DNA of 32,000 nucleotides, from contig NZ_CP043315.1 of NCBI RefSeq assembly GCF_008189285.1, positions 450,001-482,000 of the forward strand, read 5' to 3'. Origin of the DNA: Candidatus Saccharimonadota bacterium. GTDB taxonomy: Bacteria > Pseudomonadota > Alphaproteobacteria > CAJXXZ01 > 1604HC. The translations under genes and the position numbers were made by a program. Positions 11,185 through 31,078 of the stretch are shown in pieces (the first letter of the stretch is position 1; every line of letters starts with the position of its first letter). The notes below the pieces were generated by a model. It saw only the letters and a list, made by a program, of their open reading frames with translations, had not been told where the DNA came from and ran no database searches.

Positions 11185-11543
11185 TATTTTCAATATTTCA
11201 TATTTATGGCGATAATTAATGACTGATCATTGAGAAATATCAAATTTCAACAGCTATTCAATAGAATTTAATTGATGGCTTTTATTTAAATTATAATTTT
11301 GTTGAAATCTAATTACTTGATCTCAATTTCACTGCAATGCAATTATTTTACTTAGACTTTTATGCAATTTAATTGCTTTATCTCAATTTCACTACAACCT
11401 ACTGTTTTTTAACTCATAATTTTACATATATCAATTTAATACATGCTTACATTAAACTCATTAATATCAAACTGCAAAATCTAAGTTAGAGCTTATGGAG
11501 AATTGCAGATATATAATTTTACTTCGAACTATTGCGATAGAGG

Positions 11544-12278
11544 TTATTTTTGCGCTTGTGAGCGTTGCTGTGTATGCATTATTCCCTGAACTTGCTGATG
11601 ATGCACTGGAGATTGTGGTTGCGTTGGAAATTGGGATTGACTAGGATTCTGTTGCATCATTTGTTGCTGAGGTTGCATCATTGGAGGCTGTTGATGCTGT
11701 ACATGATGCTGATGTTGATTTAGTTGTGGCGCTGGAGCTGCATATGGGTGTTGCGCTGGAGACTGTGGTTGCGTTGGAAATTGGGATTGATTAGAATTCT
11801 GTTGCATCATTTGTTGCTGAGGTTGCATCATTGGAGGCTGTTGATGCTGCACATGATACTGATGTTGATTTAGTTGTGGCGCTGGAGCTGCATATGGGTG
11901 TTGCGCTGGAGACTGTGGTTGCGGAATCATCTGATTTGGTTGTGCATGTTGATGATTCTGCGATTGTGGTTGCGTTGGAGCTTGGGATTGACTAGGATTC
12001 TGTTGCATCACTTGTTGCTGTTGAGGAGCTATATATTGCGGTTGTGGCATCATTGCAACTGCATACTGCTGATGAGCTTGCTGCTGTGTTGGAACTTGGG
12101 ATTGATTAGAATTCTGTTGCATCATTTGTTGCTGAGGTTGCATCATTGGAGGCTGTTGATGCTGTACATGATGCTGATGTTGATTTAGCTGTGGCGCTGG
12201 AGGCTGTGGTTGAGCTTGCAGTTGTTGATATTGATGAGGTTGAGCTTGTTGAACCCCTATTTGATACTGTTGCTGCAC
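11544..12278 (-). CDS. Gln/Pro/His-rich repeat ORF; probably the severed C-terminal tail of the upstream MBL-fold gene (same frame, single TAA between) rather than an independent gene
   Basis: 244 codons from GTG at 12278. No Shine-Dalgarno sequence upstream; the first in-frame ATG is 44 codons in. The upstream ORF already ends Q-rich (ATQQSQMQQQS*). Composition is much more GC-rich than the surroundings. Confidence 0.35.
   Translation of the reverse strand: MQQQYQIGVQQAQPHQYQQLQAQPQPPAPQLNQHQHHVQHQQPPMMQPQQQMMQQNSNQSQVPTQQQAHQQYAVAMMPQPQYIAPQQQQVMQQNPSQSQAPTQPQSQNHQHAQPNQMIPQPQSPAQHPYAAPAPQLNQHQYHVQHQQPPMMQPQQQMMQQNSNQSQFPTQPQSPAQHPYAAPAPQLNQHQHHVQHQQPPMMQPQQQMMQQNPSQSQFPTQPQSPVHHQQVQGIMHTQQRSQAQK
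11631..12230. repeat. Coding tandem/interspersed repeat, ~150-bp (50-aa) unit
   Basis: The anchor ttgggattga(c/t)tag(g/a)attctgttgcatca recurs at 11631, 11781, 11982 and 12096. Copies 1 and 2 are exactly 150 bp apart and nearly identical. They encode QHPYAAPAPQLNQHQHHVQHQQPPMMQPQQQMMQQN(S/P)(N/S)QSQFPTQPQSPA. Confidence 0.85.
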
Positions 12279-12284
12279 TTGAAC

Positions 12285-14144
12285 TTAAGATTGCTGTTGC
12301 ATTTGACTCTGTTGAGTTGCTTCGCTTCCTATATTCATTCCTCCTGCAAAAAGATCAACCAATCCTTCTTGAGCAGGTTGCGAATTCAATTCTTGACGCT
12401 GACTTTGCTCTGATTGTGATGCAGAATCATCTCTTTTGCTCACTTCTGAAGATACATCTTCAACTTTCCATGCAAATGATCTTTCGATATGATTTTTCAA
12501 ATTATTAGTTGAAATCCAATATGAGCATGATGAATTGCCTCCATCGCGCCCATAACTTGTCAATTGATTCGTAGAAAAATTAAACCTACCATTTGTTGAT
12601 CCATCGCTTGTTGATCCATCGCTTGTTGATCCATCGCTTGTTGATCCATCGCTTGTTGATCTATCATTTGTCATTTTATTCAATTCTGCTAATCTTTCTA
12701 TGATTTTTTTGCTATATTTATCTGTTGGATATTTATCTAAATTGTTTGTAACTTTGCCCACAACATATGCACTAGGAGCTTGGACTCTTTCTCCATGCCC
12801 ATTCGAAGAAATGATTAATGCAGGTTTAAACAAGCTAATCGCAGAACATAATGAGCTATCTGCTCCATGATGTGGCGCAATAATAACTATGTGATGATTG
12901 TCTTTATTGAATTGCATTTCACTATTCATAACTGAATTAAAATTATTGCCAACAATTTGATGCAAAATGCTAGATCTGATTTTACCTTGCAATTCATCTT
13001 CAAAATGCACGTTAAGGGTTCCAATTTCAGACATCATTGCTATTCCTTTACTTTTTGCTTCACCTATCTTGCTCTGTTTTCCCAAATCTCTCTGTTGAGG
13101 CTTATATTCTTTTATAATATCTTCTACATTTTTTACAAATTCTTCACATGATTCCTTGTGAAACTCTTTGTTTATCAGCATTTGCGCAATTGCGTTGTTA
13201 TCTGCATCTCCTGTGCATAGCACTGATACATATTGATCTTGATCAGGAGAGATTTTATGCGTAAATGAGATTAATGGACTAACAACATTTTGCTCATCTA
13301 TATCTGCATATCTTGTATTAGCTGAAACAATATTTACATATCCAGCTAATACGCTATTAACTTCATCAAAAAGACCTAAATAACCTGAATCGCATCCTCT
13401 AGTGAAATTTTTTAAACTGTTTGCATTTTTAGCCAAATCAAATAATTCAGTCAAATTACCACTAAAGAATTGTGGGCTTTCTCCTGCAGCATTTTGCCAG
13501 AAATATGGCTCTGCAACAGGAATATCTCCTGTATTTATCAAATCTTCAGCTCTTTCTATAGAAGTAGGATCTACGCTAGGAACACGAATGGATCCAGGTC
13601 TAGTTTGGCTCAAAGATTTTTTAAAAGACCCCTCAATTCCAGTTTCTTTGCTCCAATCACCAAATGCAAATACTGCAATTTTGATATCGCCTTTGAACTT
13701 TCTATCATCCGTAGCGCTATAATATTTACTCTTTGTTACCACTGCTGCACTTGTTGAATTTTTAGGATATAAAATATGATGCAAGATATTAAAATGATCC
13801 ATATCTGGGTGAGAAAGAAATATAGTCAAATAATCAAGCTCTTTCAGTTTCTCATGAACATTCTCACATAAATCTGGATATTCCTGATCATTAGCTTTAA
13901 AACCATTATGTGTTTTATTCAATCTTGCAGGATATTCACTGCTTCCGCAGTCATACATATATCCAACTTTTTGACTGAGAGAAAAAGCCTCTCCGCTATC
14001 ATCTTTTCTATCACGATCAATTAAATCATAAATCATGATATTGCAGTTGCCCTGCCCTACATCCATGATCCCGAAGTGACTTTCCTCGACTTCAAATACA
14101 CAAAATATTTTAGAAATACATAGTAAGAGTAATTTTTTATTCAT
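12285..14144 (-). CDS. Secreted or membrane-anchored MBL-fold hydrolase, ComEC/Rec2 C-terminal-domain-like (paralog 1)
   Basis: 619 aa with hydrophobic N-terminus MNKKLLLLCISKIFCVF. Ordered motifs: MDVGQGNC, YDCG, FLSHPDMDHFN (H-x-D-x-D-H), CTGDAD, IAPHHGADSS, SSNGHG, YWISTNN. AAGGA RBS lies before the ATG at 14144. Confidence 0.55.
   Translation of the reverse strand: MNKKLLLLCISKIFCVFEVEESHFGIMDVGQGNCNIMIYDLIDRDRKDDSGEAFSLSQKVGYMYDCGSSEYPARLNKTHNGFKANDQEYPDLCENVHEKLKELDYLTIFLSHPDMDHFNILHHILYPKNSTSAAVVTKSKYYSATDDRKFKGDIKIAVFAFGDWSKETGIEGSFKKSLSQTRPGSIRVPSVDPTSIERAEDLINTGDIPVAEPYFWQNAAGESPQFFSGNLTELFDLAKNANSLKNFTRGCDSGYLGLFDEVNSVLAGYVNIVSANTRYADIDEQNVVSPLISFTHKISPDQDQYVSVLCTGDADNNAIAQMLINKEFHKESCEEFVKNVEDIIKEYKPQQRDLGKQSKIGEAKSKGIAMMSEIGTLNVHFEDELQGKIRSSILHQIVGNNFNSVMNSEMQFNKDNHHIVIIAPHHGADSSLCSAISLFKPALIISSNGHGERVQAPSAYVVGKVTNNLDKYPTDKYSKKIIERLAELNKMTNDRSTSDGSTSDGSTSDGSTSDGSTNGRFNFSTNQLTSYGRDGGNSSCSYWISTNNLKNHIERSFAWKVEDVSSEVSKRDDSASQSEQSQRQELNSQPAQEGLVDLFAGGMNIGSEATQQSQMQQQS
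12586..12675. repeat. In-frame 15-bp coding tandem repeat (ccatcgcttgttgat x4 perfect, plus 2 degenerate flanking copies) encoding (STSDG)n
   Basis: Perfect copies at 12601, 12616, 12631 and 12646. The protein reads DRSTSDGSTSDGSTSDGSTSDGSTNG. Confidence 0.9.
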
Positions 14145-14440
14145 ATTATTCCTTTGAAACTTGTTTTACATTTAAAAAAGAAATATATCAATGCTCTAAT
14201 GAATTATGAAAATATATAAATAAATGCTTTTTACTTTACCTCAATTCAGATTCAATTAATTTTTATTTATAAGAATTTAAAGTCATGTATTTTTATTTAT
14301 CACGTTTTAAACTAAATTCACTTTTATTTAAAAATTTATTTAATAAGATTTTAAGTTATTTGATTAAATTGCATTTAACTATACTATTTCTGAAAATGAC
14401 CTCTCTATAAATCAAATTTGCAAAATCTCTCAACGAATTA

Positions 14441-15568
14441 TTAAGAAGCCCATTTATTGAACATTTTTTTTATATTCTCAAAAGAGCTAGCTCCATCTTC
14501 TCCATTAGATGTCAAACTTTCTAATTCACTCAAAGCTTTCCATAATTTCAATTGCTCATTGCTCATTGTTTTTTTATTCGGAATTCTAATTAAAACTTTC
14601 ACATACAAATCGCCTTTGTATCTTCCAGAAATCATACCATGTTGTGGTATTTTTAATTTCTCTCCATATTGAATTCCTGAAGGGATCTGGACAGTAATTT
14701 TCTTATTGCTAATAGATTGTATTTCAACGGACCCTCCATTAACAGCTTGAGCAGGAGAAACATTAACAGCGCAATAAAGGTCTGATTTTACCCTAGTGAA
14801 TATAGAATGATTTAGAACATTTATTCTCACATATAGATCTCCAGGACCTGCTTTTCCATCATTTCCTTCTCCAATTATACGAATTTCCTGTTTATCCAAA
14901 ACTCCTTGAGGAATATTGATATCTATTTCTTTGTCTCTTTGCACATTTCCAGCACCAGAACAACTTTTACATTTGCTCTTTATGCGTTTTCCAGCTCCAC
15001 CACAACTACTGCAAGATTGTTGAAGATTCATAAATCCATGCCTGACAAAAAAAGTTCCTTTACCATGACATTGAGCACAAGTTACTGGAGGCTCTGTAGA
15101 TCCAACACCTTTGCAAGTATCGCATTTAGCTAACTTAGGAATTTTGATTCGTGCTTGATATCCATTATAAGCTTGATCAAGAGAAATATCTAATTCAAAG
15201 CTTAAATCTCTACCTTTTTGAGAAGCAGAGCTTTTACGCCCTCCTCCTCCAAAAAAGCTTGAGAACATATCTCCAATATCCATATCTCCGAAATCAAATG
15301 AGAATCCATCAGATCCACCGCCTGCAAATCCATCAGTTGATCCAGTAAAATCATATTGCTTTCTTTTGTTTTCATCTTTTAAAGTGTCATATGCTTCTGT
15401 GATTTCTTTAAATTTATCTTCAGCTTCTTTTTTTTCTTTCTGCGTGAATTTCTTTCCCGAAAATTTATCAGGATGGTATTTCATAGCTAAAGATCTGTAA
15501 GATTTTGTGATCTCTTTTTGAGTTGATGTTTTGGAAACACCTAATATATCATAATAATTTTTGCTCAT
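14441..15568 (-). CDS. dnaJ: Molecular chaperone DnaJ
   Basis: J domain with YHPDK, a G/F-rich linker, and four CxxCxG-type zinc-finger repeats (only CDTCKGVG, CAQCHGKG and CKSCSGAG are full CxxCxGxG). It lies 18 nt downstream of dnaK. Confidence 0.95.
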   Translation of the reverse strand: MSKNYYDILGVSKTSTQKEITKSYRSLAMKYHPDKFSGKKFTQKEKKEAEDKFKEITEAYDTLKDENKRKQYDFTGSTDGFAGGGSDGFSFDFGDMDIGDMFSSFFGGGGRKSSASQKGRDLSFELDISLDQAYNGYQARIKIPKLAKCDTCKGVGSTEPPVTCAQCHGKGTFFVRHGFMNLQQSCSSCGGAGKRIKSKCKSCSGAGNVQRDKEIDINIPQGVLDKQEIRIIGEGNDGKAGPGDLYVRINVLNHSIFTRVKSDLYCAVNVSPAQAVNGGSVEIQSISNKKITVQIPSGIQYGEKLKIPQHGMISGRYKGDLYVKVLIRIPNKKTMSNEQLKLWKALSELESLTSNGEDGASSFENIKKMFNKWAS

Positions 15569-15586
15569 AATTTCCTTTAATTATAT

Positions 15587-17497
15587 TCAGTCTTTTTTAT
15601 CATCTTCGTTAGTTGTGTATTCAGCATCTCTAACACTTTCCTGCTCAGACTCTTTATTTGCCTCTTCTTTGCTTTCTCCTTCTTTGTTGTTTTTTTCTTG
15701 AGAAGCCTTGTACGCAATTTCTCCTAATTTCATTGCATCATTAGAAAGAGCAGCGATTGAATCTTCTATAACTTTCAAATCATCTGAATCTTTTTTGCTC
15801 TTCAAATCATCCAAAGAAGCTTCAATTTTCTTTCTTGTTTCTTCGTCAAGCTCAGCTCCGTGATCTTTCAAAGCCTTTTCTGTGCTTGTGATTAATGTTT
15901 CAGCTTTATTTTTAATTTCAATTAATTTAACTTTTTGCTTATCATCTTCAGCATGCTGCTCTGCTTCTTTAATTTTTTTCTCAATCTCTTCATCAGACAA
16001 TCCACCAGAATCTTTAATAGAAATTTTATGCTCTTTATTTGTTGCTTTGTCTTTTGCAGAGACATGCACAACTCCATCAACATCAATTTCAAATGTAACC
16101 TCTATTTGAGGGATCCCTCTTGGCGCTGGAGCAATTCCTGAAAAATCAAATTGACCAAGCAATTTATTGTCAGCAGCCATAGATCTTTCACCTTGCAAAA
16201 CTCTAATTGTTACAGAAGTCTGACTATCTATAGCAGTAGAGAATACTTGAGATTTCTTTGTAGGAATAGTTGTGTTTCTATCAATTAATTTAGAGCAAAT
16301 TCCACCTTCTGTCTCAATTCCCAATGACAAAGGAGTAACATCAAGTAATAAGATATCCTTTACATCTCCTTGCAAAACACCACCTTGAATTGCAGCTCCA
16401 CTAGCAACAACTTCATCAGGATTAATTCCTTGATGTGGTTTTTTGTTAAAAATTTCTTGAACTTTTTCTGCAATCTTAGGCATGCGTGTCATACCACCAA
16501 CCAAAAGAACATCATCAATTTCACTAGAAGAAATTCCAGCATCAGATAATGCCATCTTGCATGGATTTACTGTTCTTTCAATCAATTTTTCCACTAAAGA
16601 TTCAAGCTTTGATCTTGTTACTGTAATGTTAAGATGCTTAGGACCAGATGCATCAGCAGTAATAAATGGCAAATTCACATCAACTTGCATAGAAGCTGAA
16701 AGTGAGATTTTTGTTTTCTCTGCTTCAATTTTTAATCTTTGCAAAGCTATCTTATCTTTTTTCAAATCAATTCCATCTGACTTTAAGAATTCGCTAGCTA
16801 AGTAATTTACAATCTCTTGATCGAAATCTTCACCACCCAAGAATGTATCTCCATTAGTTGATAAAACTTCAAAAACTCCATCATTAATTTCTAGAATGGA
16901 AACATCGAAAGTTCCTCCACCAAGGTCATATACAGCAACCTTTCCATTCTTTTTCTTTTCTAAGCCATATGCTAATGCAGCTGCAGTTGGCTCATTAATG
17001 ATTCTTTTTACATCTAATCCAGCAATTTTTCCTGCTGTAATAGTAGCATTACGTTGCGCATCATTGAAATAAGCAGGCACAGTAATGACAGCTTCAGTTA
17101 CAGTTGTTCCTAAGTATTTCTCTGCATCAGATTTTAGTTTTTGTAATACAATAGCACTGATTTCTTCAGGTCTGTATGTTTTTCCATCAACTTCAACACA
17201 TGCATCTCCATTGCAATCAACAATTTTGTAAGAGCTTAAATTAGCGTGATCTTTAGTTGTTTTATCATCGTAACGACGACCAATTAATCTTTTCACAGAA
17301 TAAAAAGTGTTTGATACATTTGTAACAGCTTGTCTCATGGCTTCAGCACCTACAAGTCTATTTGCATCTTTAAAAGCAACAATAGAAGGAGTTGTTCTTC
17401 CGCCTTCGCTATTAGGCACAATGACAACTTTCCCACCTTCAAGAACCGCAACACACGAGTTGGTAGTTCCAAGATCTATTCCAATAATTTTGTTCAT
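15587..17497 (-). CDS. dnaK: Molecular chaperone DnaK (Hsp70)
   Basis: 636 aa. [39 protein letters not shown], and an acidic C-terminal tail. Confidence 0.98.
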
Positions 17498-17570
17498 TTA
17501 ATCTCCCTTCTTAATAAAATGATAATTAATACCAATCTATTAAATTATATATTTAATAAAGCTACTTAAA

Positions 17571-18146
17571 TTAGCCATTAATTCCAGATGAAACAGAAAC
17601 TCTAGAGTGCCTCAAAACTTCATCTTTAATCATGTATCCATTAGATTTCACTTCAATGATTTTATTTTTCTCATATTCAGAGTTATTTTCTTCAATAATT
17701 TCATGCTTTTGAGGATCAAAATCATCTCCAACATTAATCAATTGCTGAGTAACACCCTTACTTTCAAGCAAAGAAAGTGTTTGCTTGTAAATCATTTGAA
17801 TTCCCATATGGATATTCTTATCAGATTCAGCAGCTCTTAGAGCTAACTCTAAATTGTCCACAATTTCTAATACTGACAACATAAAATTGTTGACAACATG
17901 TTTAGCTCTGCTTTCTATGTATTCAGGCATCTTCTCGCTAAGACGTTTTTGCTCAGCTAAAGCAGAAGCCCAATCATTTCTCAGTTTTTTCTCGGAAGAT
18001 TCTAATTCTTCAATTCTAGACTCTTTTTTCTCAATTAAAGATTCATGTTCCTTAACTGCGCCAGACAATTCTTTGGCATAATTAACCAAATTCTCATCAC
18101 TTGAATCGAAATTCTCTTTCTCAAAATCTATCTCTCGAACAGACAT
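17571..18146 (-). CDS. grpE: Nucleotide exchange factor GrpE
   Basis: 191 aa. Coiled-coil N-terminal half and a C-terminal beta domain (FDPQKHEIIEE...GYMIKDEVLRHSRVSVS). GGAGG RBS. It is the first gene of grpE-dnaK-dnaJ. Confidence 0.9.
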   Translation of the reverse strand: MSVREIDFEKENFDSSDENLVNYAKELSGAVKEHESLIEKKESRIEELESSEKKLRNDWASALAEQKRLSEKMPEYIESRAKHVVNNFMLSVLEIVDNLELALRAAESDKNIHMGIQMIYKQTLSLLESKGVTQQLINVGDDFDPQKHEIIEENNSEYEKNKIIEVKSNGYMIKDEVLRHSRVSVSSGING

Positions 18147-18168
18147 TCAACCTCCGAAATTAAAATGC

Positions 18169-18187
18169 ATCTAGCAAAACACTAGAT
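18169..18187. promoter_or_regulatory. Perfect inverted repeat ATCTAG-N7-CTAGAT at the predicted grpE transcription start (operator or leader-hairpin candidate)
   Basis: Read directly. It lies between the -10 hexamer and the GGAGG RBS. It does not match CIRCE (TTAGCACTC-N9-GAGTGCTAA). Confidence 0.3.
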
Positions 18188-18193
18188 ATTAGA

Positions 18194-18222
18194 ATCATAT
18201 CATGAGCAACAAAATCTGTCAA
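18194..18222 (-). promoter_or_regulatory. Sigma-70-type promoter candidate for grpE-dnaK-dnaJ: -35 TTGACA, 17-nt spacer, -10 TATGAT
   Basis: The minus strand reads aatTTGACAgattttgttgctcatgaTATGATtctaat. -35 at 18222-18217 and -10 at 18199-18194, about 48 nt upstream of the grpE ATG. Confidence 0.45.
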
Positions 18223-18305
18223 ATTAAATGAAATTTAAGACTATTAATATAAGTGAAAAAATAACAAACATTTAGCTTAATATAGTTATATGATAATATG
18301 CTTTT

Positions 18306-18797
18306 ATGTCAATTGAAATCAAGCCAGTACCGAAATTTGCGAAGTATTGGAAAATAAACACAAGAAATATTCCTCATACACTGGAAACTGCAGCTGTATA
18401 TTCTGCTAAAAAGGCAATTGGATTCAGAAGAAATATGCATAATCAAGAAGTATACTTGACTATTCATTGTGTAAGCCCAAGATATATGAAGTATTTAAGT
18501 AAAAAACATAGAAATAAAAATACTCTCACTAATGTGCTATCTTTTCCTGCAGATATGTTGCCTGGAGATGTAGAGGGACCTCGTGTTTTAGGGGATATTT
18601 TTCTATGTAACGATGTAATTAAGGCAGAAGCTGAAGAAGCTGAGAAAAGTTTCGAGGCGCATTTCCTGCATTTAGTTGCGCACGGCACATTACACCTAAT
18701 AGGATACGATCATGAAGAGGAAAATGACGCATTGGTTATGGAAGATGTTGAGAAAAAAATCATGAAATCATTCAACATTGCAAATCCATACGCATAG
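18306..18797 (+). CDS. ybeY: rRNA maturation endoribonuclease YbeY
   Basis: HLVAHGTLHLIGYDH matches the YbeY H-x-x-x-H-G-x-L-H-L-x-G-Y-D-H zinc motif. 163 aa. Confidence 0.9.
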   Translation: MSIEIKPVPKFAKYWKINTRNIPHTLETAAVYSAKKAIGFRRNMHNQEVYLTIHCVSPRYMKYLSKKHRNKNTLTNVLSFPADMLPGDVEGPRVLGDIFLCNDVIKAEAEEAEKSFEAHFLHLVAHGTLHLIGYDHEEENDALVMEDVEKKIMKSFNIANPYA

Positions 18798-18814
18798 CCC
18801 TAGTTGATTTATAA

Positions 18815-18860
18815 ATTTACACAATTGTATTTTCAGCATTTACACAATTGTATTTTCAGC
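18815..18860. repeat. Tandem duplication, 23-bp unit x2 (atttacacaattgtattttcagc)
   Basis: Perfect copies at 18815-18837 and 18838-18860, immediately downstream of the ybeY stop. Confidence 0.9.
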
Positions 18861-19197
18861 ATATTATAATTTCTATTACAAATAATAATATTCATATACC
18901 TCATAAATACGATTTTATATACAAATTATATGTTTAAAATCTATGCGAACAGATGATTAATTCAATAAATATTACATTTTCTAGCGCATAATAATTTGCA
19001 TTTATAATTAAATCTTATGCGACTTCAATATAATAATATTAATCCTAATTTCATTCATATGAATTACATTTTCTGAATATAAAATAGCTATTCAAATCAT
19101 AAATAGCATATTTCAAATCCATATAAACTTATACAGCAAATCTATATGTTTGATTTTTGAATAGTTCTTTTTGAGTGATTTTGACAAAAGTTTATTT

Positions 19198-21465
19198 TTA
19201 ACTGACTTGAGGTGGTTGAGATATTATTTCAACACCTTCGGGCTGTTGACTTCCTGCTCGCGCACCATCATGAAGCAATGCACTAGCATCATTTGCAACT
19301 AGGACTGGCTGCATTGATGATGAAACTTGTGAATGAGTATCATTTGCAGCTAGAGCTGATTGCTGCGATAATAAAATATTTTGTATATGATCATTCGCTG
19401 CAACAGCCATAATCGCACTTGCGCTCACAACACAGCGCGTTGCAAGAAGATCTCCTTCTGTAGAGCATGAATATATCTGCCCTCTCAAAACATCAACATC
19501 CAGAAACTCTTGAGAGCCAGAAAATGCATTATACATTGCTAATGGGTTTCTTTCTTCTGAACATGCAATCCTAAGAGATCCATGATCATTTGTAGAGAAA
19601 AGCCATATAGAGCAAGGTCTTTTTTCTCCTTCATCTCCCTTTTTCTGATAAACTGTTATTTTTTTACCCCAAGTAATTTCATCTATATCCTTAACACTAT
19701 ACTGACTTTCAAAGGTAATTTGACTATTTCCTTTAAAAAACTCACCAACAAAATCTAGGCGTGGATTAAAAGCATTGGTCAAATTCTTAAAGAAATTAGC
19801 ATGTATATGAGGCTGCTGACCTCCATGACCATTTGACACATAAAGAATATTTGCACAAAATAATCTAGCTAAACTAATTGCAACTTGCCATTGTTCTTCA
19901 GATCCGTGATGAGGAGCAACTAATGCAACTTTGTCATTTTTGAATCTGCTTGCCACGGAATCAATAATATTTTTTCTGTAATCTGCTCTTGTTACAGGGT
20001 GAGATGCAATTCTTTTTCCCTCGTCTGCAAAAAATTTCATTCTTTCGAACATATCATTTCCACTTGCAGGGTCATTTAATTTTTTCATTTTCTCACATAA
20101 TTCCAACGCTTCTTTCTCATATTTCATTGTTATCAATCCTTGCAACATATCAGAAAAAGTTGAGTCCTCTGCATCTCCAGCGCAAATTACTGAATAAGCT
20201 TTAGATGATCCATCAACTGTTCCTGTAAATGATATTATTGGACTTTGCGCATTTGGATTTCCTGTAGTATTCATGGACCAAATGTAAATATGATCTTTTA
20301 ATTCTTTAATTATCGCATCAAATCCTGAAATAAAACTTTTTTCTGCAACAAATTTACTAAACATAGATTTAATATCTCCTGAGAAGAATTCCGGTAAATT
20401 AAATTCTTGTTTTTGAGCAAATGGCTCAATCAAAATATGAGATCTATATTTCAAGCATTTTAGTATTTGCCCTGCTACACCTGATACCTTTCCCCCTGAA
20501 TCACTCTTACGCCAATCTCCACATAAAATAGACATAATCTTACAATTTTTAAAATCTTCCGCACTATCATTATGCTTATCAGATCTGGATCTAGAGTTAC
20601 ACTCACATCCAAACAATTTGCTTATAAAACTAATATGATCTCCTTCTGGATGAGATAAAATTATAAATAAATAATCCAAATTTTGCAGTTTTACTCTCAA
20701 ATTATGTGCCATAGTAGAAATGGAATGAGATTGATTTGACTTGTCAGATTCTTGCTCTTCTTTCACTAAACTTTGATGATAAATATACCAAGATATTTTT
20801 TTAAGCAATTCTTTTTTGTCTTTGTCAGATAACTTATCAAATTTCTCTCTATTTACTTCTTTCAAAATAGGAAAATACTGATGAATTTTTTTGCATTTAA
20901 GCATTGCTTCAATCAATTTCTCGCCTACTTCTTTGATTTCTTTTTTAATGTTATTCTCACATTCATCTTTACCTAATCTCCATCTTGTATAATCTGCGCT
21001 AATTTCTTTATTACCCCATTCTTTCATTTTATTTTCCCACTCTTCTATCAAGCACAAGAGCTCTCCAATTTTTCCTCTACGTATAGTTTCAATTTTATTT
21101 TGCCGCCCTTTTATCTTAAATTCTACTTCAATTTCTTTATTAACAAACTCCAAAATCCCTTTGCTTGCTTCATCTTCACCCAATTTCGTTCCCAAATTCT
21201 TAGAATATTCAGTTTTTCCACAGTCATATAGGAATGCAACTGTTTTTCTCTCAATTACATCGCACATGCCAAGCAACACCTTGCTTCCATCTTCTCCTAT
21301 TGAATCAATTATTGGCTTTCTGAACTTTGCATCAATAACATACTTCATAATCTGGCAATTACCCTGCCCGACGTCCTCGATTGAGAAATCATATTCAACT
21401 ATCCCAGCGTATATATTCAGAAAGGTAGCTAAATATATAAATGGAATCCTAAAAAACTTATACAT
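19198..21465 (-). CDS. Secreted MBL-fold hydrolase, ComEC/Rec2 C-terminal-domain-like (paralog 2) with a Lys/Glu-rich insertion and an Ala/Ser/Gln-rich repeat tail
   Basis: 755 aa. Signal-peptide-like MYKFFRIPFIYLATFLNIYAG. Motifs: EDVGQGNC, YDCGK, LSHPEGDHISF, CAGDAEDS, VAPHHGSEE, SNGHGG, WLFSTNDHGSLRI. Confidence 0.55.
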   Translation of the reverse strand: MYKFFRIPFIYLATFLNIYAGIVEYDFSIEDVGQGNCQIMKYVIDAKFRKPIIDSIGEDGSKVLLGMCDVIERKTVAFLYDCGKTEYSKNLGTKLGEDEASKGILEFVNKEIEVEFKIKGRQNKIETIRRGKIGELLCLIEEWENKMKEWGNKEISADYTRWRLGKDECENNIKKEIKEVGEKLIEAMLKCKKIHQYFPILKEVNREKFDKLSDKDKKELLKKISWYIYHQSLVKEEQESDKSNQSHSISTMAHNLRVKLQNLDYLFIILSHPEGDHISFISKLFGCECNSRSRSDKHNDSAEDFKNCKIMSILCGDWRKSDSGGKVSGVAGQILKCLKYRSHILIEPFAQKQEFNLPEFFSGDIKSMFSKFVAEKSFISGFDAIIKELKDHIYIWSMNTTGNPNAQSPIISFTGTVDGSSKAYSVICAGDAEDSTFSDMLQGLITMKYEKEALELCEKMKKLNDPASGNDMFERMKFFADEGKRIASHPVTRADYRKNIIDSVASRFKNDKVALVAPHHGSEEQWQVAISLARLFCANILYVSNGHGGQQPHIHANFFKNLTNAFNPRLDFVGEFFKGNSQITFESQYSVKDIDEITWGKKITVYQKKGDEGEKRPCSIWLFSTNDHGSLRIACSEERNPLAMYNAFSGSQEFLDVDVLRGQIYSCSTEGDLLATRCVVSASAIMAVAANDHIQNILLSQQSALAANDTHSQVSSSMQPVLVANDASALLHDGARAGSQQPEGVEIISQPPQVS

Positions 21466-21520
21466 AACTTTATTTCTACACTAAAAATGATTAGCATAAT
21501 AGCTTCTTGTGCATTTTTGA
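21340..21520. repeat. Left arm of an inverted repeat shared with 23635-23815 (5' UTR plus the first 42 codons of paralogs 2 and 3)
   Basis: The reverse complement of 21340-21465 matches 23690-23815 with one mismatch by eye (atagttg vs ataattg). The ~55 nt upstream are also clearly homologous, e.g. ctaatcattttt(a/g)(g/a)tgtagaa. Confidence 0.85.
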
Positions 21521-22227
21521 TACTTATTTCTGTTTTTGCTATTTTTGCTATATATTATTTGTCGATCTCTATAGTTTTTCGCTTCACTATAAATACAATA
21601 ATTTAACTAATCTTCTAATAATCTTATAATAAAGAAATTCATAAATTTTTTAAAAGATTCATTGCTTCTAAGATTTTTGCGATTTAATTACCAAGCGCTT
21701 CCATTGGAATTTTTTATGATTTAATTGCTAAGCATTTCTATTAGAATTTTTTTAGCTTTTTCTTCTCCTATTCTTTTGTTATTTAATAGTTGAGCGCTTC
21801 TGTTAGAATTGAAAATAATAAGATATTTCCACGAAAAATTCAATTGGAATTATTAAAGAAACTTCTTATCAAATTTTGCTTTAAATTATTAATCACATCG
21901 TGCCATTTCTGCTAAAATAAAATTTACGCTATTTTTCCTAAAATAAAATATTTGCATGAAAATTATATGAAAAATATTAATTATAACAATGCCAATAATG
22001 CTTACCTACTTTTCTTTAATTAATACTATGTTTTCATTTTTTTAGCACTTTTCTTTTGAGTTCTATATTTTGCTTTTAAATTATATCATTTTTAGTTTTT
22101 TTTATATTTTTTGATATATTTCTTTCAATATGCCTTTTTAATATATTGTCATATTTTTTAGCGCTTTATTTTAGTAATTTTCACCATGTTTTTTAAATAA
22201 TACTTTGCTTGATTTGGATTTCTTTGA

Positions 22228-23484
22228 TTATTTTAGTGTTTTATAAACTGCATGACATTTTTGTACTTTTCTCATTTCCGCATCTTTCATTTTTTTGTAA
22301 AATGATTTTATCGAATGAGGATGAACAAACTTTCCATTTACTTTAATTTCATAATGAAGGTGAGGAGCTGTAGCCATCCCTGTTTTGCCAACATATCCAA
22401 TTATCTCGCCTTGTTTTACTTTTTGATTTCTTTTTACAATCAGTTTAGTCATATGACCATATCCAGTTGCAATTTTTTTATTATATGCATTATGAACAAC
22501 TTCCACGTAATTTCCATATCCAGCACAGGCTTGAGATTTTGATATAACTCCATCAGCTGGAGAATAAATTGGAGACCCCATTGGCATTCCATAATCTATT
22601 CCAGTGTGCATTTTTCTAACCTTCAAAATTGGGTGAATTCTCCATCCATAATTAGATGTAACCTTTCCTCCATTTATTGGCCTTTTCATTACAGTTATAT
22701 CATTGTAAGAATAATTCTCATTTAGATTGTATATTTTGTTTTCCATAGAAAGAATTGATTCAATTTTTCCATTTTTTCTATGCAACTCTATAAAAGCAAT
22801 TTTTGGTGCCTTGCCTGATTGCGCATGACAAGAATATCCAACATATATATTAGAAATACCAATGGTTGATTTATTAGCTTTTTGCAAAGTATTTAAAATT
22901 TCTTTTACCATAGGATTCGGCAAATTTTTTGATAGAGAAACTGATAGATTGCCATTAATTTTGCTTTGATATATTTCCCTGGAATCTTTTTGCATCCATT
23001 CTGTCATAATATCTCCATGATTTGATTTTAGATAAATTTTAAATCCTCGACCAGAAATATAACATTCGTCAAACTCATATGACCCATTTCTCTCAAAAAC
23101 TTTTGTTGAAATATTAGCATTATAAAGCCATGAAGATGGGATCACTTCATTAATTTTTTTAGTAATTTTAGAGACTTGATCAAGGGATAATCCTTCTTTA
23201 GACAAAGAAATCGACAGACCTTCATTTTCTATTTTATGTTTAATTAACACACTTCTTGAGGGAGCAATTACTTCATGAATAATCGATGTTTTCTGCGGAA
23301 CATGAAGAAATTTTAAAAATAATACACACCCACCTAAGAACATACAAATTCTGAATAAAGATATCAGCTCAAGAAAAACATAAGTAAAATTAAGTGCAAA
23401 AGGAATAAATCTAACAAAGCCAGCAACATATCTGCTCCAAAAACTAATTTCATCTACGAAAAATTTTACTACAATAGATACCAC
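22228..23484 (-). CDS. M23 family (LytM-type) peptidoglycan metalloendopeptidase with N-terminal membrane anchor
   Basis: C-terminal domain MHTGIDYGMPMGSPIYSPADG...GYGHM...GYVGKTGMATAPHLHYEIKVNG carries the HxxxD and HxH motifs. The N-terminus has hydrophobic segments. Start uncertain: GTG at 23484, with an internal ATG at codon 48. Confidence 0.85.
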   Translation of the reverse strand: MVSIVVKFFVDEISFWSRYVAGFVRFIPFALNFTYVFLELISLFRICMFLGGCVLFLKFLHVPQKTSIIHEVIAPSRSVLIKHKIENEGLSISLSKEGLSLDQVSKITKKINEVIPSSWLYNANISTKVFERNGSYEFDECYISGRGFKIYLKSNHGDIMTEWMQKDSREIYQSKINGNLSVSLSKNLPNPMVKEILNTLQKANKSTIGISNIYVGYSCHAQSGKAPKIAFIELHRKNGKIESILSMENKIYNLNENYSYNDITVMKRPINGGKVTSNYGWRIHPILKVRKMHTGIDYGMPMGSPIYSPADGVISKSQACAGYGNYVEVVHNAYNKKIATGYGHMTKLIVKRNQKVKQGEIIGYVGKTGMATAPHLHYEIKVNGKFVHPHSIKSFYKKMKDAEMRKVQKCHAVYKTLK

Positions 23485-23634
23485 GAAAGTATATTACCAT
23501 TTTTTAACTATTAATCTCTAGTGATTATATTGCCGAATGCAATTCATTTGAGCTAACTATTTTATTAAAATAATATATTTTATTCAAAATGCGAAAATAA
23601 TTTTCATAAATTTCTATAAACCTATAAAATTGCA

Positions 23635-23815
23635 TAAAAAATACATAAAAAGCTATACTACTAATCATTTTTGATGTAGAAGTAAAATTATGTATAAGTT
23701 TTTTAGGATTCCATTTATATATTTAGCTACCTTTCTGAATATATACGCTGGGATAATTGAATATGATTTCTCAATCGAGGACGTCGGGCAGGGTAATTGC
23801 CAGATTATGAAGTAT
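23635..23815. repeat. Right arm of the inverted repeat shared with 21340-21520
   Basis: See the left arm. It includes a -10-like TATACT at 23654-23659, where the paralog 2 copy has TATTAT at the equivalent position. Confidence 0.85.
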
Positions 23816-25522
23816 GTTGTGGAATTAAGCACAGTGTCAGAATTTGGGGATAGTCATGGGAAAAAGCAATTTAAAAAAGAAGATGGAAAAGTTGTAGAAT
23901 CAAGTGAGCAGAAGCAATTTGAAAGGAAAATTGAGAGAAAAACAGTTGCATTCCTATATGATTGTGGAAAAGTAGAATTTTCTAAGAATTTGGGAACGAA
24001 GTTGGATGAAGAAACATATAAACTTGCAGAAGAATTGAATAGCAAATTTAAAGAATTGAATAAACAAAAATTCGAATTAAAATCTAATGAAGATAAGATG
24101 ACCAAAGCAGATAATAAGGGGAATTCATCAAAGAACGATGGAACTCCAACTAAAGATTATGCTAGATGGAGTAAAAATATAAAGCAAAATGAAGAAAAAA
24201 TTAAAGAAATAAATAAAGAAATTAAAAAGCTTTCAAAAAATCTTTTTGCATGCAAAAAAATTCATCAGTATTTTCCCATTTTGAAAGAAGTAAATAGAGA
24301 GAAATTTGATAAGTTATCTGACAAAGACAAAAAAGAATTGCTTGGAAAAGTATGCAAATACATCAATGACCAAAATTTAGTGAAAGAAGAGCAAGAATCT
24401 GACAAGACAAATCAACCTTATTCAATTAATACTATGGCGCATAATTTGAGAGCAAAGTTGCAAAACTTGGACTATTTATTTGTAATTTTATCTCATCCAG
24501 ATAAGGATCATATAAACTTTATAAGCAAATTATTTGGATGTGAATGCGCTGCAAACGCAAACGCAGATGATATTGACAAGCACAGCGATTCAAAATATCT
24601 GAAAGATTGCAAGATTATGTCTATTCTTTGCGGATATTGGCGTAAAGGTGATGAAAATTCAGATGAAGGCAAAGAAGATAATTCTAATGTTATGAAGCAG
24701 GCATTAGGATGTCTTAAAAAAAGATCTCATATTTTGATTGAGCCATTTATTACAAAGCAAAAAAACTCTCATTTACCGAAATTTTTCTCTGGAGATATTG
24801 AATCTATGTTTAATAAATTTGTTGCAAAAAAAAGTTTGATTTCAGGATTTGATGCGATAATTAAAGAATTAAAAGATCATATTTACATTTGGTCCATGAA
24901 TACTCCAGGAAATCCAAATGCGCAAAGTCCAATAATATCATTTACAGGAAAAGTGGATGGAGAATCTGATGAGCAAGCTTATTCAGTAATTTGCGCTGGA
25001 GATGCAGAAGATTCAACTTATTCAAATATGGTAACAGAATTAGCAATAAGAGAGCAGAAAAATATAAGATCTGTTCTTGATCTAATAGAAAGCAAATTTG
25101 GAGATAGCAGAATTGCATTAGTTGCCCCTCATCACGGATCTGAAGAGCAGTGGCAGATTACTTTTAATCTAGCAAAATTGTTTCAAGCAAACATTCTTTA
25201 CATATCAAATGGACACGGAGGAATGTATCCCCATATAAATCCAAATTTCTTCAAGAATTTAACTGCTGCGTTTAAAGTATGGCCTGAATCCAGCGAAAAA
25301 TTCTTCTTAGGAGATTGTCAAATTTCTTTTGAAAGCCAATATAATGCTAGAACCATAAATGCAATTAACGAAGGAAAAGAAGTTGATGGGGAAAATGAAG
25401 GAAAGAAAATAACTGTTTATAAGCAAAAAGGTAAAAAGGGAGATAAAAAAGATTGCCCACCATGGCTTTTCTCTACAAATGATCATGGATCTCTTAGAAT
25501 TGTACGCCATTCGCGTTCATAA
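23690..25522 (+). CDS. Secreted MBL-fold hydrolase, ComEC/Rec2 C-terminal-domain-like (paralog 3); has a Lys/Glu-rich insertion but no C-terminal tail
   Basis: 610 aa. The first 42 residues are identical to paralog 2 except one I/V. Motifs: EDVGQGNC, YDCGK, LSHPDKDHINF, CAGDAEDS, VAPHHGSEE, SNGHGG, WLFSTNDHGSLRI. It then stops 6 codons later. Confidence 0.55.
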   Translation: MYKFFRIPFIYLATFLNIYAGIIEYDFSIEDVGQGNCQIMKYVVELSTVSEFGDSHGKKQFKKEDGKVVESSEQKQFERKIERKTVAFLYDCGKVEFSKNLGTKLDEETYKLAEELNSKFKELNKQKFELKSNEDKMTKADNKGNSSKNDGTPTKDYARWSKNIKQNEEKIKEINKEIKKLSKNLFACKKIHQYFPILKEVNREKFDKLSDKDKKELLGKVCKYINDQNLVKEEQESDKTNQPYSINTMAHNLRAKLQNLDYLFVILSHPDKDHINFISKLFGCECAANANADDIDKHSDSKYLKDCKIMSILCGYWRKGDENSDEGKEDNSNVMKQALGCLKKRSHILIEPFITKQKNSHLPKFFSGDIESMFNKFVAKKSLISGFDAIIKELKDHIYIWSMNTPGNPNAQSPIISFTGKVDGESDEQAYSVICAGDAEDSTYSNMVTELAIREQKNIRSVLDLIESKFGDSRIALVAPHHGSEEQWQITFNLAKLFQANILYISNGHGGMYPHINPNFFKNLTAAFKVWPESSEKFFLGDCQISFESQYNARTINAINEGKEVDGENEGKKITVYKQKGKKGDKKDCPPWLFSTNDHGSLRIVRHSRS

Positions 25523-26013: not shown

Positions 26014-26502
26014 TTATTTAATTCCAATGTAAATATTAAAACCTTCTTTTTCTATAGCTTCAGGTGTTTTGTCATAAATTTCGAAATCTGCAACAAAACT
26101 TCTCTCTCCACCAAGCGAATTAGAATCCATGCTCCAAATTTCCTTCCAAGCATTTATACATATCTCTGGCATTTTTCCTGGAGCAACTTCAAATTTGACA
26201 TATTTTTGTTGAGGAATTGTATGTGTTTTTAGAGTAGAATCAACATTATCAAAAGAAATTACTTCTTCTCCAACAAAGTAAGTGTATTCTCCATTATGAT
26301 CACCTTCATAATCAGCATACACACAATACATTGCTCCTGGATTTTTTCTATTGGAAATCTTTTCGTTAATATTATTACTAAAATACTTATTTATAGTTGG
26401 CATTATTTTTCCTGTATCTGGATTCATTTCTGCTGCATTGTTTGTCTTTACAGAAATTCCAACAAGCTTTATTTCATTTAATTGGTTTTTTGATTTTTTC
26501 AT
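26014..26502 (-). CDS. GyrI-like / AraC-effector-binding-domain (Cass2-like) small-molecule-binding protein
   Basis: 162 aa. The layout IKLVGISVKT...YCVYADYE...YTYFVGEEV...KYVKFEV...W.EIW...ADFEIYD is typical of stand-alone GyrI-like domains. GGGAGA RBS. It lies downstream of fabI on the same strand. Confidence 0.55.
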   Translation of the reverse strand: MKKSKNQLNEIKLVGISVKTNNAAEMNPDTGKIMPTINKYFSNNINEKISNRKNPGAMYCVYADYEGDHNGEYTYFVGEEVISFDNVDSTLKTHTIPQQKYVKFEVAPGKMPEICINAWKEIWSMDSNSLGGERSFVADFEIYDKTPEAIEKEGFNIYIGIK

Positions 26503-29704: not shown

Positions 29705-30439
29705 CTAAAATGAAATTGATTTCGCAATCGTAATGCAATATACGCCTTTTACTCCAGCATCTTTCAATACTTTTGCGGCTGAATTTAAAGTTGCTCCTGT
29801 AGTTGTAACGTCATCTAGAATCAAAACATTCTTCCCTTTAATTTTATTCTCATGAGCATAGTTAATTTCAAATGCATTTTCCATATTTTTCTTTCTGCCT
29901 GCCTTATTAAATTTGCTCTGACTATATGTCCATTTCGTACGCAATAACCCATCTCGCAAATGAGATATTTTTGCAATCTTTGACAGTTGTTTTGTTAAAA
30001 TCTCAGTTTGATTATACCCCCTCCAAAACAATCTCCAATTATGCAAAGGAATTGGAATTATATAATCCACATTATCGGCCCACTCTTTAATTGAATTATT
30101 CATTAAATTAGCAAAGAAATTAGTCAAATAAAAGCAATTATGATTCTTATAAGACATAATCAATTTCTTGGTATTTATATCATATTTCATAATAGATTTC
30201 GCATAGTCTATATAATATTTCTTATTTTGTATGCATTTTCCACATGAAATTGACTCTCCCATATCATATGAAAAAGGGTTTCCGCATGTCTTGCATGCTG
30301 GATCCTGTATAAATCTAATTTTATTCCAACACTTATGACACAATCCATTCTCTTGCAAAGGAGCATTACATAAATAACATATCTTTGGATAAAATAAATC
30401 AGTAATCTTGTTCATACATTTACTTACAATTGAATTCAT
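29705..30439 (-). CDS. comF: ComF family protein (ComFC-type amidophosphoribosyltransferase-like)
   Basis: N-terminal Cys-rich zinc-finger region: CYLCNAPL...CHKCW...CKTCG...CGKC. C-terminal PRTase motif VLILDDVTTTGATL. Confidence 0.8.
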   Translation of the reverse strand: MNSIVSKCMNKITDLFYPKICYLCNAPLQENGLCHKCWNKIRFIQDPACKTCGNPFSYDMGESISCGKCIQNKKYYIDYAKSIMKYDINTKKLIMSYKNHNCFYLTNFFANLMNNSIKEWADNVDYIIPIPLHNWRLFWRGYNQTEILTKQLSKIAKISHLRDGLLRTKWTYSQSKFNKAGRKKNMENAFEINYAHENKIKGKNVLILDDVTTTGATLNSAAKVLKDAGVKGVYCITIAKSISF

Positions 30440-31078
30440 TTATACCTCAATTGTTTTTTCAATATCTTGATTTATATTTTGTATAATTTGGTTAAATATT
30501 TTCTCTCTACTCAATCTTCCGAAACATAATCCATCAAGAAATCCAATAAATTGCTGGTAATTACTTTCATTTAGCGATCCTCCATAGCAAATTGGCTTAT
30601 TTGTAATTTTCCTAATTTGCATTACTTTATCAGCAATAATATTCGCGCCTGGAGCATCTTTTTTTCCTATATATTCATGTGGCTCATAAACAATTATTCC
30701 ACTTTTAGATAAATTGCTTAATTTCTCAGCTTCATATATATCTCTCACAAAAATAATAGGAATGATATCATTCTCATCGCATGCTTTGATCATACTTTTT
30801 GGATTATAATTACTTTGATAATGATCTGCATGATTGCATAAACAATGCTTAACATTAAATTGCTTTAATAATTCTATAGATATACTTCCAGTTAGTGTAT
30901 TTTGTGTAAAATTCTGAGCACATAATGATATGTTTTTCAAATTAGATAACTTAGATATGGCAAAATAATTTGGCGCAACAATATACTTTACATTCTTCTT
31001 ATGATTATACTCATAAATATTTTCCATAACTGATGCATTTTGAATGCCTTTCCAGTTTGCTATTACGAAAAAACTCAC
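30440..31078 (-). CDS. tpiA: Triosephosphate isomerase (short, divergent); GTG start
   Basis: VIANWKG (catalytic Lys), LCAQNF, TGSISIELLK, CNHADH in place of GHSERR (His kept), VYEPHEYIGK (catalytic Glu), CYGGSLNESN. The stop abuts the comF ATG. Confidence 0.7.
   Translation of the reverse strand: MSFFVIANWKGIQNASVMENIYEYNHKKNVKYIVAPNYFAISKLSNLKNISLCAQNFTQNTLTGSISIELLKQFNVKHCLCNHADHYQSNYNPKSMIKACDENDIIPIIFVRDIYEAEKLSNLSKSGIIVYEPHEYIGKKDAPGANIIADKVMQIRKITNKPICYGGSLNESNYQQFIGFLDGLCFGRLSREKIFNQIIQNINQDIEKTIEV

Follow-up and report, generated by a model that had tools for sequence, protein, structure and literature searches.

What do three large genes, set among housekeeping genes in the reduced genome of an intracellular symbiont, encode? 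The window analysed here is a 32,000-nucleotide stretch (GC 0.31) from Candidatus Cytomitobacter indipagum, a holosporacean that lives as an endosymbiont in a diplonemid, a marine protist. Cytomitobacter lies against, and possibly inside, the mitochondria of its host. The genome is 628 kb with ~30% GC, and in highly reduced protist endosymbionts a large share of the genes encodes secreted "hypothetical" proteins (bioRxiv 10.1101/719211). A first-pass annotation of the sequence had picked out three open reading frames (ORFs) of 619, 755 and 610 residues, here P1, P2 and P3, and had read them as a lineage-expanded family of exported proteins related to the C-terminal metallo-β-lactamase (MBL) domain of the competence protein ComEC. 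The ORFs are exactly as described, and all are intact. At the level of family profiles, the core of P1–P3 proves homologous to the C-terminal MBL nuclease domain of ComEC. On balance, the three are probably exported binuclear-metal phosphodiesterases, diversified paralogs built on that core.

A family with a ComEC-type MBL core

The similarity that makes P1–P3 paralogs far exceeds chance. Overall identity between P2 and P3 is 56% (BLASTP E 0.0), rising to 75% on conserved core columns, and P1 shares 27% identity with P2 (BLASTP, E 2e-19). P1 is 100% identical to FZC35_01990. Every motif in the series previously listed was found in all three proteins, in the stated order (Table 1). The segment between GDA and APHHG, described as varying from ~40 to ~110 residues, measures 108 in P1, 84 in P2 and 39 in P3. 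The C-terminal tails differ as noted, with 72 Q-rich residues past the last motif in P1, 129 Ala/Ser/Gln-rich residues in P2 and 13 residues in P3. The Lys/Glu-rich insertion between YDCG and SHP is present in P2 and P3 and not in P1, but its size had been put at ~170 residues; because the YDCG-to-SHP spacer is already 43 residues in P1 (187 in P2 and 174 in P3), the insertion amounts to ~130–145.

Taken singly, P1–P3 gave no significant match in Pfam, NCBIfam or PDB. The best single-sequence signals were 14–17 bits to the 6A-MBL model at SHPDxDH and E~2 to ComEC chains at APHHG, and a three-sequence profile had no significant match in PDB. A word-indexed homolog search was nearly blind to the family, returning 1, 3 and 6 matches. 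An exhaustive profile search with five Cytomitobacter sequences against 1.84 billion representatives retrieved 140 relatives at E<=1e-3, 74 of them at E<=1e-10; most are 500–850 residues long and their clusters are mostly metagenomic. A family alignment of 73 members, and the profile derived from it, were used for conservation and remote comparison.

Searched against PDB, this profile matched ComEC entries only (9vcb at 1.6e-9, 9vcf, 9vc6, 9vc9, 9ic4 and 30bt; E 1.6e-9 to 1e-4), and against a 5.8-billion-protein database it matched true ComEC proteins carrying PF13567, PF03772 and PF00753 (E 2e-9). Alignment of the family profile with one true ComEC by hhalign gave 97.9% probability (E 3.8e-13) over the whole MBL domain (residues 446–678), pairing THGDYDH with SHPDxDH, TGDAG with TGDA, and HHGSK with PHHGS. 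The TIGR00361 ComEC_Rec2 model is matched by 53 of the 73 members (E<0.01, MBL part only; best E 5e-16), the 6A-MBL enzyme model by 38 and the Avs1a model by 36. Pfam Lactamase_B (PF00753) matches two of the relatives, at E 0.0025, and none of P1–P3. A profile scan of genome contigs yielded seven loci only, four of which are probably other MBL or ComEC proteins. The ComEC-type assignment was therefore borne out by the family profile (PDB, hhalign and TIGR00361 together) but not by profile-model searches with the individual proteins.

Conservation over the 73 members extends through (D/N/S)VGQGN, DxG, SHPDxDH, GDW/F, PYYW, N...N-x-QS, TGDA, PHHGS, AG-x-G-x-x-HP and a final TN-x-x-G strand. Silale et al. 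(PMC8579336) describe the ComEC C-terminal domain as a nuclease and phosphodiesterase that depends on Mn2+. Relative to Pce, its closest solved homolog, Asp replaces the second His of motif II, and the His of motif III is Asn. The P1–P3 family shares this variant: motif II, which reads HPDMDH in P1, HPEGDH in P2 and HPDKDH in P3, aligns with THGDYDH of true ComEC, giving the ComEC form H-x-D-x-D-H. An Asn at position 286 (P1 numbering), 27 residues before D313, is invariant in the 73 relatives and aligns with the ComEC Asn (NNGS / NDQS / DENEDS); by this alignment N286 is a putative metal ligand. Motif IV, C(T/A)GDA, and motif V, APHHG(A/S), occur in all three proteins, and the HP element is AP in P1 and PH in P2 and P3. 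Across the relatives, H112, D114, D116, H117, N286, D313, H425/H426, D28 and D65 are each either invariant or conserved in no fewer than 90%. P1–P3 keep every predicted ligand position, the sole change being D114 to E in P2. Two conserved non-ligand positions are altered: P3 has GYW where the family has GDW, and P1 lacks the His (before Pro457) of the G-x-G-x-x-HP motif.

As the first-pass annotation had proposed, none of the three carries the ComEC transmembrane channel. The Competence domain PF03772 has no match in P1–P3 at E<=1, and the hydrophobic N-terminus noted in all three ORFs is the sole hydrophobic segment of each protein, which therefore has no room for a ComEC-like channel. In a Kyte-Doolittle scan, no 19-residue window of P1–P3 had a mean above 1.6. 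PF13567 (DUF4131 / OB-fold) likewise has no match, MBL strand 1 beginning at about residues 17–25, and TIGR00361 does not match P1–P3 at E<=1. Because the channel and OB domains were tested for and are absent, the P1–P3 family is not a member of ComEC/Rec2. Literature searches found no description of it, and it is best classed as a previously undescribed family whose core, a ComEC-type MBL domain, is of a known kind.

N-termini, predicted fold and diversification

P2 and P3 begin with MYKFFR, followed by IPFIYLATFLNIYA and then G, and P1 begins with MNKK followed by LLLLCISKIFCV. All three have a basic n-region and an h-region of 12–13 residues, P1 being atypical. In P2 and P3 signal cleavage between Ala and Gly of I-Y-A-G is plausible. 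Among 64 full-length relatives, 50 carry an N-terminal h-region, with a median of 16 residues between its end and motif I. The species is reported to have Sec, reduced remnants of type II secretion (T2SS) and of type IV pili (T4P), and 106 signal-peptide proteins (bioRxiv 10.1101/719211). Given the signal-like N-termini, together with Sec and these 106 proteins, export across the inner membrane is likely. A lipoprotein signal was considered and rejected by eye, as the residue before each early Cys is Leu, not Gly, Ala or Ser.

We modelled P1 with AlphaFold2 using the family alignment. The full-length model has a predicted template modelling score (pTM) of 0.72, with a per-residue confidence (pLDDT) of ~90 in the core and a disordered tail; more than 25% of residues fall below pLDDT 50. 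A model of residues 17–470 has pTM 0.79. In Foldseek comparison with PDB, the top ranks for both models are all MBL folds: Pce/CbpE (1wra, prob 0.96), CPSF73, RNase Z, MBLBt2, RNase J and ELAC1. Trimming to residues 17–470 brought no gain, and no ComEC entry appeared among the matches. The structure comparison anticipated for this family thus ranks MBL folds first but with E-values of only 4e-3 to 1e-2, never <=1e-3, and TM-scores <=0.41. The fold evidence agrees with the profile evidence, but on these scores it is weak and would not suffice by itself; the Foldseek scores are probably lowered by the many insertions. Below the MBL ranks, dozens of weak ~52-residue matches to SSB/PriB OB folds (E 0.1–2, none significant) were seen, probably arising from unusually long N-terminal β-hairpins of the models. 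Between motifs II and III, residues ~205–270 of P1 are confidently modelled and carry the conserved EPYxW and FFSG. We read this region as a family-specific, partly helical subdomain of ~100 residues (GDW, EPYxW, FFSG) which probably lies over the active site.

P2 and P3 form the arms of an inverted duplication enclosing the M23 peptidase gene. Synonymous divergence (dS) between them, measured in 50-codon blocks, is patchy (0.03–2.7): it is 0.03–0.11 in codons 1–50 and 373–422 and >1 elsewhere. This patchiness indicates gene conversion between the arms. The ratio of nonsynonymous to synonymous divergence (dN/dS) is 0.45 overall and 0.08–0.26 in the blocks with catalytic motifs. The family diversifies through local duplication, gene conversion and indels.

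The end of P1 adds a further change. The ORF closes with ...QQSQMQQQS and a TAA codon, after which the same frame resumes with VQVQQQYQ... and runs for 246 further Gln/Pro-rich codons to the next stop. The Gln/Pro-rich ORF annotated in this frame has no match in Pfam or PADLOC. We take it as the probable C-terminal tail, now cut off (or reached by read-through), of an ancestral ~866-residue protein. A single CAA-to-TAA change would probably account for the split, the alternatives being read-through or a sequencing error. Within P1 itself, the (STSDG)n repeat could be a contingency or length-variable loop.

Copies of the family were sought in related genomes and found. The sister species C. primus has at least five annotated copies, one named "MBL fold metallo-hydrolase" by NCBI, and three of its family genes lie within 10 kb around fabI-sppA. 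Related genomes of ~620 kb hold several further copies. The description "lineage-expanded" fits these copy numbers, but the family is not restricted to this lineage, as the ~140 clusters are mostly metagenomic. In a rough neighbour-joining tree the copies group by genome, which indicates lineage-specific expansion or concerted evolution. In one related genome, of 619 kb, the slot that follows the M23 peptidase gene, occupied by P3 in the window, still holds a family member. The ybeY-M23 slot, home to P2 in the window, is there filled by two large ORFs (816 and 1135 residues) with no Pfam match and no relation to the P1–P3 family; large lineage-specific proteins seem to accumulate at this intergenic position.

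Several relatives have features of their own. Tails differ again among the C. primus copies: proteins P0006 and P0007 carry four-fold hydrophobic repeats at the C-terminus, possible membrane-insertion tails, and P0007 has degenerate catalytic motifs (SYPNVEN, AGNA, SHRE) that make it pseudoenzyme-like. One paralog is present in the Diplonema japonicum transcriptome. P0005 and P0003 (C. primus / D. japonicum transcriptome) agree at 58 of their first 60 residues and share ~40% identity over the remainder; this 5'-end homogenisation resembles that of P2 and P3, a chimeric Trinity contig being the alternative. The amino-acid composition of the relatives is of the AT-rich-genome type (median FYMINK/GARP 2.15). 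Two distant members, P0032 and P0074, score 25.6 and 24.8 bits for an OTU-like cysteine-protease domain at the N-terminus, above the Pfam cut-off of 23.3. P0032 is encoded on a plasmid-like contig that also carries a relaxase, Rep3 and transposases, and tblastn of the OTU-fused relative against plasmids found no match. P0020 lacks a signal-like N-terminus and has instead a basic start resembling a nuclear localisation signal (NLS; …PRKRKFDS…SKKPKA…); it adjoins a bacterial dcw cluster (mraZ-rsmH-ftsI-murE-murF-mraY).

Proposed function and its rivals

If P1–P3 are exported binuclear-metal phosphodiesterases, each would consist of a short Sec-type signal-like N-terminus and, ~10–16 residues on, an MBL sandwich opening with xDVGQGN (motif I). 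The core would then run through the YDCG aspartate, the H-x-D-x-D-H of motif II, the motif III Asn, TGDA with its bridging Asp and the HHG of motif V to a terminal W-x-STN-xG strand, with paralog-specific insertions and tails grafted at loop positions. After Sec export the enzyme would hold a pair of divalent metal ions; the ComEC C-terminal domain and Pce, taken as analogues, suggest Mn2+ or Zn2+. It would hydrolyse phosphodiesters, with nucleic acid the most probable of them, outside the bacterial cytoplasm, in the periplasm, at the surface or in the host cytosol. Such activity might serve host manipulation and/or nucleotide scavenging by a nucleotide-importing symbiont, and the variable insertions and tails may set targeting. 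That the substrate is nucleic acid is a serious possibility, to which we give somewhat less than an even chance. A host-directed function is favoured, indirectly, by the OTU fusions, the signal-less NLS-like start of P0020, the AT-rich composition, the copy expansion and the D. japonicum transcript.

Several points weigh against this proposal. No single-sequence match to Lactamase_B or ComEC models reaches significance, and the Foldseek scores are low throughout. The h-region of P1 is broken by Lys12 and followed by no clean AxA site, and passage past the outer membrane is unsupported, the genome having T2SS/T4P remnants only. Pce, the closest solved fold, is not a nuclease. Conserved positions are altered in P3 (GYW) and P1 (the missing His). 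Finally, as P1 appears truncated by a stop codon and dN/dS is relaxed, some copies may be decaying.

The strongest of the rival explanations keeps the fold and the export and changes the substrate: P1–P3 might be Pce-like esterases of phosphocholine or phospholipid headgroups, or phosphodiesterases of other small molecules, with host or mitochondrial membranes or metabolites as targets. The best Foldseek match of the full model is the Pce/CbpE phosphorylcholine esterase domain, phosphodiesterase activity of a general kind is known for the ComEC C-terminal domain too (PMC8579336), the subdomain between motifs II and III could redefine specificity, and the symbionts sit beside, possibly inside, host mitochondria. 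However, the family profiles are nearer to ComEC, through TIGR00361, than to any other model, motif II has the ComEC form and not the H-x-H-x-D-H of Pce, and P1–P3 have no choline-binding repeats (no CW_binding match). We consider a non-nucleic-acid substrate of this kind unlikely, though worth keeping in view.

Since the ComEC C-terminal domain is the closest homolog, P1–P3 could also be periplasmic nuclease modules working in trans with an MBL-less ComEC, in DNA uptake for recombination or nucleotides through the T4P/T2SS remnants and ComF. Proteobacterial ComEC ancestrally lacks Lactamase_B, which only certain beta-, delta- and gamma-proteobacterial lineages have regained (PMC6299819), and how organisms with MBL-less ComEC degrade the non-transported strand is posed as a question in PMC8579336. 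The genome is reported to retain T2SS/T4P remnants, and the window holds a ComF/GntX-family gene. Three to six fast-diverging copies with varied insertions and tails would, however, be unexpected for a conserved machine part; the OTU fusions and the signal-less relative point to eukaryotic targets, and the family occurs in limited AT-rich lineages and not generally among bacteria with MBL-less ComEC. This explanation is quite improbable.

A similarly low likelihood attaches to the copies being inert or decaying, that is, surface or structural proteins or pseudogenes in progress kept by drift. The stop codon that parts P1 from its former tail, the altered GDW and His positions, the degenerate motifs of C. 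primus P0007, the overall dN/dS and the low-confidence quarter or more of the P1 model would all suit it. Against this, the ORFs stay open over 610–755 codons in a genome of 31% GC, where stops arise easily, and every predicted metal ligand is retained, with the one exception of D to E in P2. Blocks with catalytic motifs have the low dN/dS given above, one paralog is transcribed, and the P3 slot beside the M23 gene is kept in a related genome.

Membership in anti-phage defence of the Avs1a or 6A-MBL type, suggested by weak matches of P1 and P3 to the 6A-MBL enzyme model (E 0.02 and 0.002) and by the 36–38 relatives that match the Avs1a or 6A-MBL models, is effectively refuted by failed thresholds (14–17 bits against a cut-off of 220; no PADLOC match) and by gene context (housekeeping neighbours, with no STAND NTPase or other partner gene), and further by the signal-peptide-like N-terminus, the obligate intracellular life of the symbiont and the ComEC model's more numerous and stronger matches.

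Exported phosphodiesterases with a ComEC-type core, then, remain our preferred reading of P1–P3. In it, the paralogy, the homology to the ComEC-type MBL domain, the conserved ligand positions, the missing channel, the expansion and the gene conversion are established, and export, metal binding, catalysis, substrate and biological role are inferred. A broader proposal, which we regard as doubtful, is that the family represents a widespread undescribed class of exported ComEC-domain-like nucleases that intracellular bacteria of protists use against host nucleic acids. Its basis is the OTU-fused relatives, the signal-less NLS-like relative and the DNA-rich diplonemid mitochondrion nearby. If it is true, the enzymes would supply the nucleotide-importing Cytomitobacter and/or manipulate its host.

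Three large genes of a 628-kb genome, and at least five in the sister species, can now be assigned to one enzyme family. The predicted binuclear-metal phosphodiesterase mechanism offers clear catalytic residues to mutate and a testable handle on the Cytomitobacter-diplonemid interaction. The family is unannotated and invisible to Pfam, comprises ~140 representative clusters and occurs also in other bacteria of AT-rich composition, sometimes fused to OTU domains. The ComEC nuclease domain would, on our reading, have an independent life as an exported modular enzyme. P1–P3 also illustrate paralog diversification in a reduced genome by inverted duplication, patchy gene conversion, loop insertions and tandem-repeat tails.

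Gene neighbourhood and known systems

The placement among housekeeping genes holds. P1–P3 are surrounded by genes for ATP synthase subunits, DnaG, RpoD, DnaJ, DnaK, GrpE and YbeY, and further neighbours encode an M23 peptidoglycan endopeptidase, a Cass2/GyrI-like protein, FabI, SppA, a ComF-family protein and a short triose-phosphate isomerase (Table 1). ComF is a partner of ComEC in DNA uptake and is retained here despite the very small genome. The triose-phosphate isomerase is short and divergent, in a genome reported to lack glycolysis. Short tandem repeats occupy intergenic sites beside the paralogs. A promoter/terminator scan of the window gave fewer matches than in shuffles.

Table 1. 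Features of the window (nucleotide positions; residue positions for motifs) and of loci in related genomes
Feature	Position	Strand	Remarks
P1 (619 aa; FZC35_01990)	12285..14144	-	Signal-like N-terminus, ComEC-type MBL core (aa 17-548), Ser/Thr/Asp/Gly repeat, Q-rich tail to TAA 12285-12287
P1 N-terminal signal-like segment	14097..14144	-	MNKKLLLLCISKIFCV; modelled as short helix, aa 2-13, directly before strand 1
P1 motif II	13794..13814	-	SHPDMDH, ComEC-type H-x-D-x-D-H candidate metal motif
P1 15-bp tandem repeat	12593..12665	-	x4.9, 98% matches, (STSDG)n; low-confidence loop before last two core strands
Gln/Pro-rich repetitive ORF	11544..12284	-	244 aa from GTG 12278, in P1 frame, parted from P1 by TAA + two codons; GC 0.455
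150-bp (50-codon) tandem repeats in Gln/Pro ORF	11599..12213	-	Two adjacent copies 95-96% identical, two more degenerate
P2 (755 aa)	19198..21465	-	Signal-like N-terminus, MBL core + 187-aa Lys/Glu-rich spacer, SHPEGDH (Asp to Glu), 129-aa Ala/Ser/Gln-rich tail
P2 Lys/Glu-rich spacer	20656..21216	-	YDCG to SHPEGDH, 187 aa, 30% K+E
P3 (610 aa; FZC35_02025, QEK38142.1)	23690..25522	+	Signal-like N-terminus, MBL core + 174-aa Lys/Glu-rich spacer, GYW for GDW, almost no tail
P3 Lys/Glu-rich spacer	23969..24490	+	YDCG to SHPDKDH, 174 aa, 30% K+E
Left arm of inverted duplication	19566..21521	.	P2 + 56 nt upstream of ATG; blocks 74-93% identical to right arm
Right arm of inverted duplication	23634..25502	.	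56 nt upstream + P3
M23 peptidoglycan endopeptidase gene	22228..23484	-	Between P2/P3 duplication arms; same slot kept in related 619-kb genome
DVGQGNC	P1 aa 28, P2 aa 31, P3 aa 31		
YDCG	P1 aa 64, P2 aa 80, P3 aa 90		
SHP(D/E)xDH	P1 aa 111, P2 aa 271, P3 aa 268		
C(T/A)GDA	P1 aa 310, P2 aa 428, P3 aa 435		
APHHG	P1 aa 423, P2 aa 517, P3 aa 479		
SNGHG	P1 aa 447, P2 aa 544, P3 aa 506		
W(I/L)(F)STN	P1 aa 543, P2 aa 621, P3 aa 592		
Cass2/GyrI-like small-molecule-binding protein	26014-26502	-	Adjoins P3
ComF/GntX-family protein	29705-30439	-	Double zinc ribbon + phosphoribosyltransferase domain; TIGR00201 E 3e-31, below cut-off
Triose-phosphate isomerase	30440-31078	-	212 aa; E 6e-17, far below cut-offs
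Intergenic tandem repeat, 23 bp	18815-18877		Downstream of ybeY and P2
Intergenic tandem repeat, 37 bp	21674-21752		Upstream of P2
Intergenic tandem repeat, 30 bp	11311-11397		Downstream of Gln/Pro ORF
C. primus, three family genes	L001 941-3217, 5962-8121, 8322-11261		Within 10 kb around fabI-sppA
Related 619-kb genome, ybeY-M23 slot	L011 2357-4807, 4935-8342	-, -	816 and 1135 aa
P0032	L008 8001-10634		OTU-fused
P0020	L012 328-2268		Adjoins dcw cluster

Four known systems bear comparison with P1–P3. Avs1a (AVAST type 1, NF041809) and 6A-MBL (NF058524) belong to the same ComEC-like MBL branch, and about half of the relatives match them below threshold, but these proteins are cytoplasmic and have NTPase or other defence genes as partners. 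RNase J, RNase Z/ELAC1 and CPSF73 combine an MBL sandwich, a capping domain inserted close to the active site and a nucleic-acid phosphodiesterase mechanism, features that P1–P3 would share on our proposal. P1–P3 have no beta-CASP or exosite domain and a different motif II variant, and there is no sequence relationship beyond the superfamily, the structural matches being weak.

Pce/CbpE of Streptococcus pneumoniae (1wra, 2bib) resembles the predicted enzymes in being an exported stand-alone MBL-fold phosphodiesterase that acts on host or envelope molecules. It differs in its H-x-H-x-D-H motif II, its motif III His and its choline-binding repeats; sequence similarity to P1–P3 is undetectable and the structural match is weak (E 3.7e-3, TM 0.34). 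The nearest known system is the ComEC C-terminal MBL domain, which has, in the same order, DVGQG, DxG, H-x-D-x-D-H, N-x-x-S, TGDA, HHGS, AG-x-x-x-HP and, at the end, a T(D/N)xxG strand, and which sits outside the cytoplasmic membrane, as predicted for P1–P3. Unlike ComEC, P1–P3 have no Competence channel, no DUF4131/OB fold and no transmembrane helices; they are stand-alone proteins with a signal-like N-terminus of their own, an extra conserved subdomain of ~100 residues between motifs II and III, large insertions and tails, and multiple copies per genome.

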